32,531 nucleotides of DNA from a virus (lineage: Duplodnaviria; Heunggongvirae; Uroviricota; Caudoviricetes). The stretch lies in IMG/VR virus record IMGVR_UViG_2909246061_000005. The stretch is one strand, 5' to 3'. The notes under the pieces are model-generated. The model did not search any database. It saw nothing but the letters and a program-made list of their open reading frames with translations, and was not told the DNA's origin. This document shows, piece by piece, positions 15,174 to 21,936 of the stretch. Position numbers and translations under genes: made by a program. The first letter of the stretch is position 1. Each line of letters starts with the position of its first letter.

Positions 15174-15197
15174 GTCCGCTTTGAGCGAGGAGCGGAC
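15174..15197. repeat. Conserved hairpin copy 1 (GTCCGCT-10 nt-AGCGGAC)
   Basis: Perfect 7-bp stem; the same stem recurs at 18240-18263 and 21913-21936. Confidence 0.6.
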
Positions 15198-15413
15198 CAA
15201 ACCCGGCCAACTGACTCTTAAAGGGGCCGCAGGAATTTTTCGTCTGAACTTTCGAAGCTCCTCTCCCTGAAGACAGAAAACTTCTGTGTGCTGTGGGAAT
15301 ATTGAATCTTTGCCTTAGATATAAATAATTTTATCCCGCCTGAAGTTTACATTATTTTATTTATCTGTTTTTCTAAATCAGACTGCACTCCTTACTTAAA
15401 TCAGGAGCCAGTC

Positions 15414-16613
15414 ATGCCATTTGTTATTTATGTGTTTACTATCAGTGCCTTTGCGCTCGGACTCGCGGAATTTGTCCCCATTGGGCTGACAGACGTTATG
15501 GCTCAGGGGTTGTGTGTGGGTGTGGAGCAGACCGGGGCAGCGGTTACAACCTATGCACTGGGGGCAACGTTCGCGGCACCCGTACTGTCTGCGCTGACAG
15601 CAAGCTGGAGCCGGAAAAATGTAATGCTTACAACTGCCGTTGTGTTTACTGCCGGTAGTCTGGCGGCCGCGTTTGCAGCCACATTACCTCAGCTCCTGTT
15701 AGCGCGGTTCATTGCTGGTCTGGGACACGGCCTGTTTCTGGCTGCGGCATCCAGTACCGCAGCTCGTCTTGCTGGACCGGGTAAAGCAGGCAGAGCGGTG
15801 GCTGTGGTATTTGGTGGCTTTACTCTGGCGATGGCAATCGGCGTACCGCTGAGTACATGGTTGGGGGGGGTGGTCTCATGGCGTCCAGTTCTCGGCGCTA
15901 TTGCCGCTTTTGGCGCGTTCGGATTCCTTGGACTGTTGTTCGGTATGAAAGATCCCGTACGCAGCGTGCCCGGTGAACATAGTGACTCAGCAATGCAGAA
16001 TATCGGCATGCTGTTTAACCGTAAGTTGCTGGCCGGCGCGCTGGTTACGGTGCTGGCGTATGCAGGCTCGTTTACGGATTACACCTTTATCGCACCTATT
16101 CTGACGCAGGTGACAGGGGTTACCGGAGCAACGGTGAGTCTGTTTATGCTGGTTTACGGTATTACAGCTGCGGTAGGTAATATTCTTGGTGGGAAACTTA
16201 CCGACAGCATGGGGGTTAATCGTGCCAATATACTCATCATTAGCGGCATTGTTGTTGTCGTGCTTGGTATGTGGCTGCTGTCATCCTCACCGGTGAGCAT
16301 GGGCATTCTGGTTGCGCTGCTGGGTATGGTGACATTTGCCGCAGTGCCGGCACTGCAGGCCCGTCTGATTGGTGTCGCTGAGCAACATGCTCCTCATGCG
16401 CATGGTGTTGCTGCCGGCCTGAATATTGCGGGCTTCAACTCAGGTATAGCGCTGGGATCAGTACTGGGCAGCATTACTATAAGCCACGCCGGTATCGTGT
16501 ATACCGGTATCAGCGGTGCGATTGTTTCTCTGCTCGGCCTGCTGTTGCTGCTTGCACAAATCCGTCGCAGCCACAGTCGTAAATTTCAACAGGTTAAAAT
16601 CGTAGGCCAGTAA
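15414..16613 (+). CDS. MFS transporter (12-TM, DHA1-like)
   Basis: 399 aa, highly hydrophobic with Gly/Ala-rich TM helices typical of MFS; ATG with AGGAG upstream. Confidence 0.85.
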   Translation: MPFVIYVFTISAFALGLAEFVPIGLTDVMAQGLCVGVEQTGAAVTTYALGATFAAPVLSALTASWSRKNVMLTTAVVFTAGSLAAAFAATLPQLLLARFIAGLGHGLFLAAASSTAARLAGPGKAGRAVAVVFGGFTLAMAIGVPLSTWLGGVVSWRPVLGAIAAFGAFGFLGLLFGMKDPVRSVPGEHSDSAMQNIGMLFNRKLLAGALVTVLAYAGSFTDYTFIAPILTQVTGVTGATVSLFMLVYGITAAVGNILGGKLTDSMGVNRANILIISGIVVVVLGMWLLSSSPVSMGILVALLGMVTFAAVPALQARLIGVAEQHAPHAHGVAAGLNIAGFNSGIALGSVLGSITISHAGIVYTGISGAIVSLLGLLLLLAQIRRSHSRKFQQVKIVGQ

Positions 16614-16624
16614 AGGGAGGTTAT

Positions 16625-19603: not shown

Positions 19604-19666
19604 TCTGCATTCCCTCATATTGCAGCCGGGATAAATAAATGCCGCCTCTGTGGCGGCATGTTGCTG

Positions 19667-21670
19667 TTAACGAACCAGATGCAGGAAGTGCAGGTGTTTT
19701 TCGTACTGGTCCAGTATGTCATTAATCAGCTGTTCCTGATTCCAGCCCATTACATCATAATTTTGGCCGCCCTCTTTGAGATAGACTTCAGCGCGATAAT
19801 ATCGATGTTGTTCACTCTGCTGCTCATCATTATCCAGCGCAGCGAGCGCGAAGGTCGGTGAGTTATACCCGCGAAGCCTCACTTCATATATATAATTCAG
19901 CTCGTTGCCCAAATCGACTTCAAGGCGAATACGATCCTCGGCGGCGTCACTGATGTGGCTTATCGTTCCCTGCTTGTTAAGTTCCTCCTGAACCAGCGTC
20001 ATGGCGGGTTGGATAATGTCGTCCATAAAACGTTTCACAAGAGAGCGCTTCGGCAAATACGCGATATTGCGTAACCTTCTCTGCCAGGGAATTGGGTTAC
20101 GTGCAGCCGTAGGAGCAATAGTCGCCATGCTAAGGCTTTCACGCTTGGTCAAATCCCGACGCAGGGCTTTTAACAGTCCGTATATGGATATTAATAAGAT
20201 AACTGAGAAGGGCAATGCACTCGCTATCGTTACGGTTTGCAACGCACTCAGCCCCCCTGCGATCAGCAGGGCAATAGCAACAACGCCCATGAGCGATGCC
20301 CAGAAAATTCGCTGCCAGACGGGCGTGTTTGCCACCCCACCTGATGCCAGAGTATCCACAACCATTGCCCCCGAATCAGCAGACGTTACAAAGAAGACGA
20401 TGACCATCGCCATTGCAATGAATGACAGCACGGAAGAGAACGGGAAATGCTCCAGGAAATTAAACAGGGCAAGCGCAACATCCTGCTGAACGGTATTGGC
20501 GAGGTCAGTGGCGCCCTGGTTCATGATGAGATAGATGGCGCTGTTTCCAAACACCGTCATCCACATGAGCGTAAAGCCGGCGGGAACAAACAACACGCCA
20601 GTCACGAACTCACGAATTGTCCTGCCGCGGGAAACGCGTGCAATGAACATACCTACAAACGGCGACCATGAAAGCCACCATCCCCAGTATAATAATGTCC
20701 AGCCCCCCAGCCAGTTGCTCGACTTGGGTTCATACGCGTAAAGGTTGAACGTTTTACTCACCAGTTCCGACAGATAACCACCCGTATTTTCCACAAATGA
20801 CTTCAGCAGAAGCACAGTGGGACCCAGGCACAAGACCAGCGCCAGGAGCAACACCGCCAGGCCCAGATTAAGCTCAGACAGGATGCGTATTCCCTTGTCC
20901 AGGCCGGACACCACCGAAATCGTCGCTAACCCCGTGATGACCACGATCAAAATGACCTGTACCGTTTCATTGATGGGCACGCCGAAAAGATGGTTCAAAC
21001 CGGCATTCACCTGCAATACACCGTAACCCAGCGATGTTGCAACGCCAAAGACAGTGCCTATCACGGCGAAGATATCAACCGCGTGGCCTATAGGCCCGTA
21101 AATGCGATCGCCGATAATGGGATAGAGCGCAGAACGCAGCGTTAAAGGCAGACCGTGACGGTAACTGAAAAAGGCCAGAATCAGCGCCACGATGGCATAA
21201 ATTGCCCATGCGTGCAGACCCCAGTGGAAGAACGTCAGGCGCATGGCTTCCTTCGCTGCCGCAACGGTCTCTGGAGTGCCGACAGGTGGCGAAAGATAAT
21301 GCATCACAGGTTCGGCAACGCCAAAGAACATCAGGCCGATCCCCATCCCTGCCGAAAAAAGCATCGCGAACCAGGAGTGGTAGCTGAAATCAGGCTGCGC
21401 ATGATCTGGGCCCAGCTTTATATCACCGTAACGTGAGAGTCCAAGGAACGTGACGCTCAGTAAAATCAGGGCCACAGCAAGTATGTAGAACCAGCTGGCA
21501 TTCGTGAAGATTTGTTGCTGAAGTAGTTTAAAATTTTTGTCGGCGACATCCGGGAATACGGCGGCAAAGGCGACAAGAAGGAAAATTAGCAAAGCAGATG
21601 TAAAGAATACCGCTTTGTTAATCTGGCTTGTAGACTTCTTTGGGGTTGTATCATTTTCACTCATAATCAT
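19667..21670 (-). CDS. BCCT-family transporter, BetT-like (choline/betaine type)
   Basis: 667 aa; WTLLYWGWWLSWSPFVGMFIARVSRGRTIREFV and C-terminal INDILDQYEKHLHFLHL parallel recalled E. coli BetT motifs. Confidence 0.85.
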   Translation of the reverse strand: MIMSENDTTPKKSTSQINKAVFFTSALLIFLLVAFAAVFPDVADKNFKLLQQQIFTNASWFYILAVALILLSVTFLGLSRYGDIKLGPDHAQPDFSYHSWFAMLFSAGMGIGLMFFGVAEPVMHYLSPPVGTPETVAAAKEAMRLTFFHWGLHAWAIYAIVALILAFFSYRHGLPLTLRSALYPIIGDRIYGPIGHAVDIFAVIGTVFGVATSLGYGVLQVNAGLNHLFGVPINETVQVILIVVITGLATISVVSGLDKGIRILSELNLGLAVLLLALVLCLGPTVLLLKSFVENTGGYLSELVSKTFNLYAYEPKSSNWLGGWTLLYWGWWLSWSPFVGMFIARVSRGRTIREFVTGVLFVPAGFTLMWMTVFGNSAIYLIMNQGATDLANTVQQDVALALFNFLEHFPFSSVLSFIAMAMVIVFFVTSADSGAMVVDTLASGGVANTPVWQRIFWASLMGVVAIALLIAGGLSALQTVTIASALPFSVILLISIYGLLKALRRDLTKRESLSMATIAPTAARNPIPWQRRLRNIAYLPKRSLVKRFMDDIIQPAMTLVQEELNKQGTISHISDAAEDRIRLEVDLGNELNYIYEVRLRGYNSPTFALAALDNDEQQSEQHRYYRAEVYLKEGGQNYDVMGWNQEQLINDILDQYEKHLHFLHLVR

Positions 21671-21912
21671 TTATTCCATTAATTAAATCCGCACTGGATA
21701 GAAGGTACTACCTCTCACAGAGTAGCAAAGTTCAACTGGCTATGCGGGGTTAATCGGAATGCATGGTGGAATGAGTGCCGATACAAATCATCCTATATTA
21801 TAAGGAGTTTTAAGTTACTCAGCCTGCCAATTACTGGGGCATTTAATTTGTATGATCTGTATCAAAGCTGGGATATAAGTTAAGTGAAGTATATTAGGCA
21901 CGAATTACCAGC

Positions 21913-21936
21913 GTCTGCTCTTGGCACAAAGCGGAC
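21913..21936. repeat. Conserved hairpin copy 3 (GTCTGCT-CTTGGCACAA-AGCGGAC)
   Basis: About 23/26 identity with copy 2 in the same orientation; upstream of the BCCT gene. Confidence 0.6.

Follow-up and report, generated by a model that had tools for sequence, protein, structure and literature searches.

Inverted repeats in a Rac prophage hotspot as probable recombination sites with two centres that delimit exchangeable cargo units

The DNA analysed here, referred to as the window, is the whole 32,531-nucleotide stretch of IMG/VR virus record IMGVR_UViG_2909246061_000005. It is identical to part of an Escherichia coli chromosome and represents the Rac prophage (intR, xisR, recET, kilR, sieB, trkG, pinR). 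Its cargo block has nin-type genes (DUF1367, DUF1364, DUF1133) on one side and a replication-region gene, DUF977, on the other. The pattern GTCYGCT-N10-AGCRGAC occurs exactly three times in the window, always on the + strand and always between genes, and not once in 100 dinucleotide-preserving shuffles of it. Each copy can be read as two 9-bp arms, left (L) GTCYGCTYY and right (R) RRAGCRGAC, around a 6-bp centre, and the centres are of two kinds: GAGCGA in copy 1, which makes it an A-type site, and TGGCAC in copies 2 and 3, which makes them B-type sites. From left to right the hotspot therefore reads A site, MFS-GGCT-LysR unit, B site, DUF2254-BCCT unit, B site, and then the DUF977 gene (GGCT, gamma-glutamylcyclotransferase). 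We present evidence that these repeats are probably recombination sites whose two centres do not interchange. The features are as follows.

15154–15173, + strand: left anchor of the lambdoid backbone, cgacgcaagctaaccttcta, adjoining the A site
15174–15197, + strand: copy 1, GTCCGCTTTGAGCGAGGAGCGGAC, exact pattern match; A-type site at the left edge of the cargo array, with L arm GTCCGCTTT (15174–15182), centre GAGCGA (15183–15188) and R arm GGAGCGGAC (15189–15197)
15198–18239, + strand: cargo unit 1 (A to B), from the RefSeq annotation of the identical genome region and a Pfam census
15414–16613, + strand: MFS transporter, cargo unit 1
16625–17317, + strand: gamma-glutamylcyclotransferase/ChaC-like protein, cargo unit 1
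17314–18195, + strand: LysR regulator, cargo unit 1
18240–18263, + strand: copy 2, GTCCGCTTCTGGCACAAAGCAGAC, exact pattern match; B-type site at the junction of units 1 and 2, with L arm GTCCGCTTC, centre TGGCAC (18249–18254) and R arm AAAGCAGAC
18264–21912, − strand: cargo unit 2 (B to B), 3,673 bp from site to site, from plasmid matches ending at the sites
18326–19603, − strand: DUF2254 membrane protein (Pfam DUF2254, E=1.5e-92)
19667–21664, − strand: BCCT (BetT-like) transporter (Pfam BCCT, E=7e-199)
21913–21936, + strand: copy 3, GTCTGCTCTTGGCACAAAGCGGAC, exact pattern match; B-type site at the junction of unit 2 and the prophage backbone, with L arm GTCTGCTCT, centre TGGCAC (21922–21927) and R arm AAAGCGGAC
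21937–21956, + strand: right anchor of the lambdoid backbone, aaccacgctagctctaccct, leading into the DUF977 gene (22005–22427, − strand)

The first-pass annotation had picked out these three copies, and their positions were confirmed. It described a 7-bp stem common to all; the pattern is indeed present in each, but only copy 1 has a perfect stem, since copies 2 and 3 are hybrid sites, which at pair 4-21 have a C.A mismatch and T.G, respectively. Its count of 23 identical positions in 26 for copies 2 and 3, flanks included, is too high: the two have the loop TGGCACAAAGC in common, but 20 of 24 positions agree within the site and the outer flanks are unlike. Gene coordinates bear out the remaining layout, with copies 2 and 3 in direct orientation bracketing DUF2254 and BCCT, and copy 1 lying 217 nt upstream of the MFS gene.

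The same annotation had offered two readings of the repeats, one of which was the footprint of a small repeat-mediated insertion. Comparison with other replicons agrees with this: DUF2254-BCCT is a discrete unit that ends exactly at copies 2 and 3. A plasmid collection contains 68 records with ≥99% identity to the window, in each case confined to 18238–21937. Against plasmid pPO125, homology starts inside copy 2 (5' arm GTCCGCTTC in the window, GCCCGCTTT in the plasmid) and ends at the last base of copy 3, and homology to a P2-type prophage likewise begins inside copy 2. Further copies of the site are present at the pPO125 locus; they lie between genes on a single strand, with one or two genes between the members of each pair. 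The left neighbour of DUF2254 is LysR in the window, a 476-aa protein in pPO125 and a GFA-family protein in a Shigella plasmid. Overall, the 3,673-bp block (≥99% identity) follows at least eight different upstream units or left arms and precedes three backbone types (lambdoid, P2-type and plasmid), with every junction at the centre. A P2-like prophage of strain d1-58 has the identical block between FI (tail sheath) and G (tail-fibre assembly).

The position can also be seen unoccupied. A 1,008-bp unit, hyp269, ends in five lambdoid loci as '...GTCCGCTGT TGGCAC AAAGCGGAC aaccacgc...', where the last letters belong to the backbone. A P2-type prophage carries hyp269 too, but there the 3,673-bp DUF2254-BCCT block comes next, and its point of insertion is precisely TGGCAC. 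Arrays that have the block and arrays that lack it thus differ exactly in the expected way, the unoccupied position being marked by one B site. The expectation that strains lacking the block keep one copy of the repeat is accordingly realised for hyp269 arrays without the block, but no such case was found for an array joining the LysR unit to the backbone.

Several side observations concern this unit outside the phages. On the chromosome of E. coli 2018-18.25PC, next to hipA, locus L347 carries hyp269, a small recombinase, hyp476, DUF2254 and BCCT. The array is identical to that of the IncY plasmid pPO125. Its surroundings, a chromosomal island with genes for two large adjacent integrases, represent a fourth kind of backbone. 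This strain and the genome that matches the window come from the same Vietnamese province. On qnrS1 plasmids the 20 nt before the left A site of the array do not vary (ggtaaatagcctatgctaat) and lie next to IS26 (L002:1343–2272; left ends of L003 and L004). IS26 has apparently removed the original left backbone there, and the array lies ~4 kb from ISKpn19-qnrS1.

Where exchange has taken place can be read from how the arms are linked to their surroundings. Given the flank on its own side, each arm is predicted with a residual entropy of 0.00–0.07 bit, whereas prediction from the opposite flank leaves up to 1.2–1.3 bit. Some flank pairs occur in all four combinations, yet arms are never chimeric: each is fully linked to the flank on its own side. 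At A sites the left arm is constant for each backbone (GTCCGCTTT after aagctaaccttcta in lambdoids, GTCTGCTTT after caaatctgaca in P2 types, GTCCGCTAA in plasmids) and the right arm follows the cargo; B sites show the opposite. Other lambdoid prophages have the L arm and left flank of copy 1 (aagctaaccttcta) combined with a large variety of R arms and cargos. By comparative mapping all junctions fall between the L and R arms, the positions of cleavage being hidden in the invariant centre. The comparisons place exchange between genomes at the centre, the left arm moving with the left side and the right arm with the right side. The C.A of copy 2 and the T.G of copy 3 are what a crossover of a T-A unit site with a C-G resident site is expected to leave.

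The sites are by no means confined to this prophage or to these genes. About 70 different units are bounded by the same sites in lambdoid prophages, P2-like phages including P2 Z/fun, plasmids and islands, and sites were also met in elements resembling integrative and conjugative elements (ICE-like). A scan of viral contigs for the B site matched at least 120 contigs, and the counts of layouts and cargo that follow refer to the matches listed. Among these, the commonest layout is A-cargo-B (at least 55 loci), with ABB, ABAB and AAB also seen, and all sites within a locus share one orientation. Where units are stacked, the distance from a B site to the next A site is fixed at 39–43 bp from start to start, with a semi-conserved linker. 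The 79 cargo units, ~70 of them distinct, have 89 longest proteins matching 68 Pfam families. They include defence-type genes (AbiH, TIR, a Pycsar-type effector, DarT, PD-T7-1/5, PDC-S06/S15, FRG), transport and metabolism genes (BCCT, MFS, LysE, SDR, alkyl sulfatase, FadL, GFA) and toxin-antitoxin genes. The left-anchor 20-mer cgacgcaagctaaccttcta precedes the A site in at least 26 viral loci with differing cargo, and the right-anchor 20-mer aaccacgctagctctaccct follows the B site in at least 34 viral loci and in thousands of E. coli genomes. Indeed, in ~3,800 E. coli genomes homology on the DUF977 side begins at the first bases of copy 3, and the cargo to its left varies by strain (DUF262 and an AAA ATPase; an FRG-domain protein; QueH and a restriction-modification system).

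In phage P2 (OU784549) an A site and a B site enclose Z/fun, which lies between FI and G, and the same sites delimit other inserts in P2-type prophages. The P2 sites lie at L131:3351–3374 and 4499–4522, and the flanks of the array in the P2 backbone form an extended inverted repeat (aatctgaca-GTCTGCTTT ... AGAGCGGAC-tgtcagatt). Probes for an empty backbone found no site between FI and G in Yersinia phage P37 and a minimal arrangement, A site, 230 nt, B site, in E. coli A20; no single-site 'ancestral' backbone was seen with these probes. B-type sites are present in 66% of E. coli genomes, at 1–7 places each (median 1, maximum 7), and they lie in mobile-element hotspots. The exact site also occurs in Pantoea, Serratia, Klebsiella, Citrobacter, Pseudomonas, Nitrosomonadaceae and many Alphaproteobacteria. 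Some alphaproteobacterial metagenome-assembled genomes hold dense arrays in one orientation, with a third centre, TGACCC, and a fixed spacing of 46 bp, which may be large sedentary arrays. Those of Hyphomicrobiales and Pseudolabrys (L235, L229, L210, L234) have up to 16 sites in 8 kb, TGGCAC and TGACCC alternating.

Even the reference strain E. coli K-12 MG1655 has such a site. The relBE-hokD locus of its Qin prophage begins at a B-type site (GGCTGCTCC TGGCAC AAAGCGGAC, L348:3505–3528), which overlaps the annotated ydfV, ~110 bp upstream of relB, and is identical from the centre onward to the 'right anchor' of the qnrS1 plasmid arrays.

An enzyme that could act on these sites is encoded within some of the arrays themselves. 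In pPO125 a gene for a 200-aa 'site-specific integrase' lies between a degenerate B site and an A site. The protein (WP_001752951.1) has a PF00589 tyrosine-recombinase catalytic domain (E=1e-17) and almost no N-terminal domain, and its HxxR...H...Y motif aligns with H244/R247/H270/Y279 of XerD. Among 67 viral loci fetched by protein, an A centre lies ≤90 nt from the start codon in 31 of 40 and a B centre ≤70 nt from the stop codon in 26 of 42. The stop-codon side reads variable left arm, TGGCAC, AGGGCTGCTGTTGCAGCCCTGACA, stop codon, and the start-codon side ...gagtatggtt GTCCCTTAT, GAGCGA, variable right arm. Sequences diverge immediately outside each centre, with more than 10 contexts on either side. 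Judged from these flanks, the recombinase gene forms a B-to-A unit of its own and stands where the 18-nt linker is otherwise found. At E≤1e-30 the family comprises 569 clusters, its members are 80–90% identical across many Gammaproteobacteria, and the gene is present in 864 of 5426 E. coli genomes; homologues at ~60% identity have related but different flanking sites. It shares its array with DUF2254-BCCT on plasmids and in the chromosomal island next to hipA, and both an ICE-like element and Proteus prophages with the same arrays have it in their cargo-rich regions. These 200–210-aa tyrosine recombinases are therefore the likely candidate enzyme for the A and B sites.

In ICE-like contigs from marine and other metagenomes (L199–L204), the recombinase gene lies between blocks for arsenic resistance and copper resistance and adjoins a conserved backbone of DUF3150, VWA/CobT, RadC and primase, with only a degenerate B site beside it.

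Taken together, we consider it probable, though well short of certain, that the three repeats are core-type recombination sites with two non-interchangeable centres, delimiting exchangeable cargo units in the Rac hotspot. Conservative site-specific recombination would take place between two A sites or between two B sites. In this way a resident B site would take up a circular B-to-B unit, for example DUF2254-BCCT, and an A-to-B unit would be exchanged between replicons in two steps, cointegration at one of its sites and resolution at the other. The presumed incompatibility of A with B would keep a unit from being lost out of its own replicon. The enzyme would be the 200–210-aa tyrosine recombinase whose gene lies between B and A centres, acting in trans where it is absent, as in the window.

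Could ordinary homology account for the same junctions? Single-strand annealing by RecET, Red or Erf, or RecA-mediated recombination, might act on short stretches of homology at palindromes that are conserved for some other reason. The prophage has the means for this, as recE and recT are intact in the window (27145–30547). The small recombinase is missing from most arrays, and a 2026 hotspot study names homologous or illegitimate recombination among the candidate mechanisms. However, any two sites share only ~18–22 bp of identity, interrupted by the variable arm positions, and each arm is fully linked to its own flank, with no chimeric arms. Two classes of centre on identical arms, in strict alternation (A...B; B-42 bp-A), are hard to explain by homology alone, and a conserved recombinase gene lies exactly between the centres across taxa. 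We regard short-homology recombination as rather unlikely, though it is the strongest of the alternatives.

Whether the sites are recognised as duplex DNA or as folded single strands is a separate matter. Palindromy could mean that they act as single-stranded hairpins, in the manner of integron attC sites, or are cut by HUH enzymes like the ends of IS200/IS605 or of repetitive extragenic palindromes (REP) with their associated RAYT proteins. The dense alphaproteobacterial arrays are superficially REP-like, and a few compensated arm changes exist, namely G-C to A-T at pair 5-20 in P2, where the B site has CCGC/GCGG changed to CCAC/GTGG, and in locus L083. In 1.37 Mb of fetched DNA the true centres gave 146 and 58 occurrences with 6–7 Watson-Crick arm pairs, and six control hexamers gave almost no palindromic sites. 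Yet in the curated sites no base-pair covariation was found, Watson-Crick pairing at all nine arm pairs being that expected of independent columns. Curated sites were used for this result, since choosing sites only by their pairing lets in chance hits. The polymorphic pair 4-21 shows no association of C-G with T-A, and C.A mismatches are as common as random assortment predicts. Folding of the single strand is weak (−3 to −7 kcal/mol, z-scores −2.4 to +0.6), and both strands are equivalent. No HUH or RAYT gene is associated with the sites in the loci examined for genes, the associated gene being that of the tyrosine recombinase, and a count of 1–7 per E. coli genome is low for such elements. 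An Rfam scan gave no match at any of the three copies, even at E≤1, and a terminator scan of 14700–22100 placed none of its 14 terminator-like calls at 15174, 18240 or 21913; nor is any copy followed by the T-run of a rho-independent terminator. The absence of covariation, the ordinary folding and the lack of Rfam or terminator matches suggest that the repeats act as double-stranded, protein-recognised inverted repeats, and the hairpin alternatives are improbable. The site extends beyond the 24-bp pattern. AA stands before the left arm and TT after the right arm in 65–85% of junctions, and this conservation on cargo-side flanks, in many independent contexts, makes the site ~30 bp, with arm conservation reaching ~12 nt per arm (AAN GTCYGCTYY / RRAGCRGAC NTT). 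The layout is that of tyrosine-recombinase core-type sites, in which inverted arms flank a central region of 6–8 bp.

The other reading in the first-pass annotation, that the repeats are operators of a shared regulator such as the adjacent LysR or elements of a transcript that happen to coincide with block ends, can draw on their intergenic positions (copy 2 even lies between convergent genes) and on their constant orientation relative to backbone transcription in Rac-type and P2-type phages, but it fails on the hundreds of contexts without LysR, including nearly all of the ~70 unrelated cargos among the matches listed, on the absence of any T-run, terminator call, Rfam match or covariation, and on homology breakpoints exact to the nucleotide in unrelated replicons, which operators would not be expected to produce, and we hold it to be very improbable indeed.

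Against site-specific recombination at the A and B sites by the small recombinase stand several points. Comparison alone cannot place the crossover within the invariant centre. The MFS-GGCT-LysR unit was found in 4 viral contigs and 18 metagenome contigs, with unit 2 next to it in every case; the metagenome scan used the end of the LysR unit, and 18 of 18 contigs continue into the DUF2254 unit. A LysR unit joined directly to the backbone, which would be the empty site, was not found in the genomes, viral contigs or metagenomes searched, and by exact-string search the viral contigs contained neither this predicted empty site (gttacgtatGTCCGCTTC-TGGCAC-AAAGCGGACaaccacgc) nor the circle or tandem junction (cgaattaccagcGTCTGCTCT-TGGCAC-AAAGCAGACgcccactc). 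Likewise, probes joining the immediate flanks of the DUF2254-BCCT block revealed no precise deletion in E. coli genomes or plasmids. The constant linkage of the two units means that the array in the window may now be inactive. The enzyme raises further difficulties: no member of the 200-aa family is encoded in the window, the gene is present in only 4 of ~130 site-selected loci among the matches listed, and its action in trans is assumed. It passes no curated family threshold (best NCBIfam match 'XerA / integron integrase', 53.6 bits with a cut-off of 220; weak match 'tyrosine-type DNA invertase', E=8e-6, 25.5 bits with a cut-off of 222), and its AlphaFold model from a shallow alignment, with a mean pLDDT of 51, is too poor to use. 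Lastly, the orientation rules of the sites are not fully understood, as the K-12 Qin site is inverted relative to the orientation of the window hotspot, and one distant homologue of the recombinase has flanking sites that are inverted rather than direct.

Elsewhere in the window, some features are of lesser bearing.

10533–10556, + strand: degenerate B-like sequence GTCCGCCACTGGCTCAGAGCTGAC (GTCCGCCAC TGGCTC AGAGCTGAC), two mismatches to the pattern
11176–11362, − strand: strong match to the STnc100 small RNA family (RF02076; 86.6 bits, E=7e-18)
14352–14690: DUF1971 gene, just left of the A-site anchor

The degenerate sequence sits between TolA-like gene fragments (10091–10486 and 10637–11065). 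It recurs with identical flanks in a few related prophages, where no variable junction was seen, and it may be a relic site. The STnc100 match falls in a gene-poor stretch from a TolA-like fragment to the DUF1133 gene. At the place of DUF1971 the related prophages LF82 and A20 have hokD, and this is a further variable spot that A and B sites do not bound.

The arrays resemble several known systems without coinciding with any. Like integrons, they are ordered arrays of exchangeable units in the same orientation, bounded by short palindromic sites; a tyrosine recombinase gene abuts the site, many arrays lack the enzyme, as do clusters of attC sites lacking integron integrases (CALINs), and defence genes are among the cargo. 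In contrast to integrons, the enzyme has 200 aa and no integron-integrase signature, where IntI has ~320 aa, and the sites are simple inverted repeats of 24–30 bp, where attC sites span 57–141 bp with RYYYAAC/GTTRRRY cores. There is, moreover, no folding evidence here, the units have their own regulators, genes run either way and two classes of site alternate. In the pdif modules of Acinetobacter plasmids, served by XerC/XerD, sites of arm, 6-bp centre and arm also flank modules of 1–3 genes, often toxin-antitoxin or resistance genes, which recur in different replicons with the enzyme supplied in trans. The dif consensus is GGTGCGCATAA-N6-TTATGTTAAAT, and by eye the GTCYGCT arm is unlike it. 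The sites described here also share a direct orientation on one strand and go with a dedicated small recombinase, whereas pdif sites alternate as C/D-D/C and use the host Xer proteins. Recombinase-mediated cassette exchange with heterospecific lox or FRT sites offers a comparable logic of two incompatible spacers between identical arms, with a cassette that can be swapped and is not lost via its own ends. That, however, is an artificial Cre or Flp design, whereas the present arrangement would be natural and its GAGCGA/TGGCAC incompatibility is presumed. FimB and FimE are likewise of ~200 aa, essentially a catalytic domain with a short N-terminus, but they invert one promoter segment between 9-bp inverted repeats, whereas the sites here are mostly direct and bound mobile cargo. 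REP/RAYT elements, extragenic palindromes in high copy number throughout the chromosome, differ from these sites, which occupy few places per E. coli genome, in mobile-element hotspots and in association with a tyrosine recombinase.

Some further candidates were set aside. A sigma-54 promoter, with TGGCAC-N5-TTGC as its consensus, is not matched, and shufflon sfx sites, Hin/Gin sites, loxP and Xer/dif were excluded by sequence. A transposon with terminal inverted repeats was rejected because the outer arms remain with the backbone and not with the cargo.

Part of this picture has been glimpsed before in P2-like coliphages. According to a 2022 review, Nilsson, Karlsson and Haggard-Ljungquist (Mol Biol Evol 21:1, 2004) described inverted repeats flanking fun, and since A and B sites of the present family bound fun and other inserts between FI and G, the sites in the window are very probably those same repeats, an identity that relies on the review's one-sentence summary. 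What is added here are the lambdoid, plasmid, island and ICE contexts, the two centres, the stacking rule, the taxonomic range and the recombinase. The searchable literature, later hotspot papers included, yielded neither the two-centre logic nor the breadth nor the recombinase; recent hotspot studies do not mention A and B sites, and literature searches for the site strings and the recombinase accession returned nothing relevant. We tentatively propose that the sites, together with the 200-aa tyrosine recombinase, may constitute a naturally occurring, integron-like system of cassette exchange, previously undescribed as such. Its two heterospecific core sites, with more types of centre in other classes of Proteobacteria, would let units, that of the recombinase included, move between lambdoid and P2-like phages, plasmids, ICEs and islands.

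To conclude, the hotspots of temperate phages are major reservoirs of anti-phage defence, toxin-antitoxin and fitness genes, and the September 2026 hotspot study describes the mechanism by which their content is swapped as unresolved. With a defined site of ~30 bp and a candidate enzyme, this question becomes directly testable, and the A and B sites allow cargo units to be delimited automatically. The model would explain why the BCCT/DUF2254 block lies beside qnrS1 on clinical plasmids, and it places P2 Z/fun and relBE of K-12 in a single framework. It may also provide a compact recombinase with heterospecific sites for genome engineering. If true, an integron-like system would supply the missing mechanism for the rapid swapping of defence genes and other cargo at phage hotspots.

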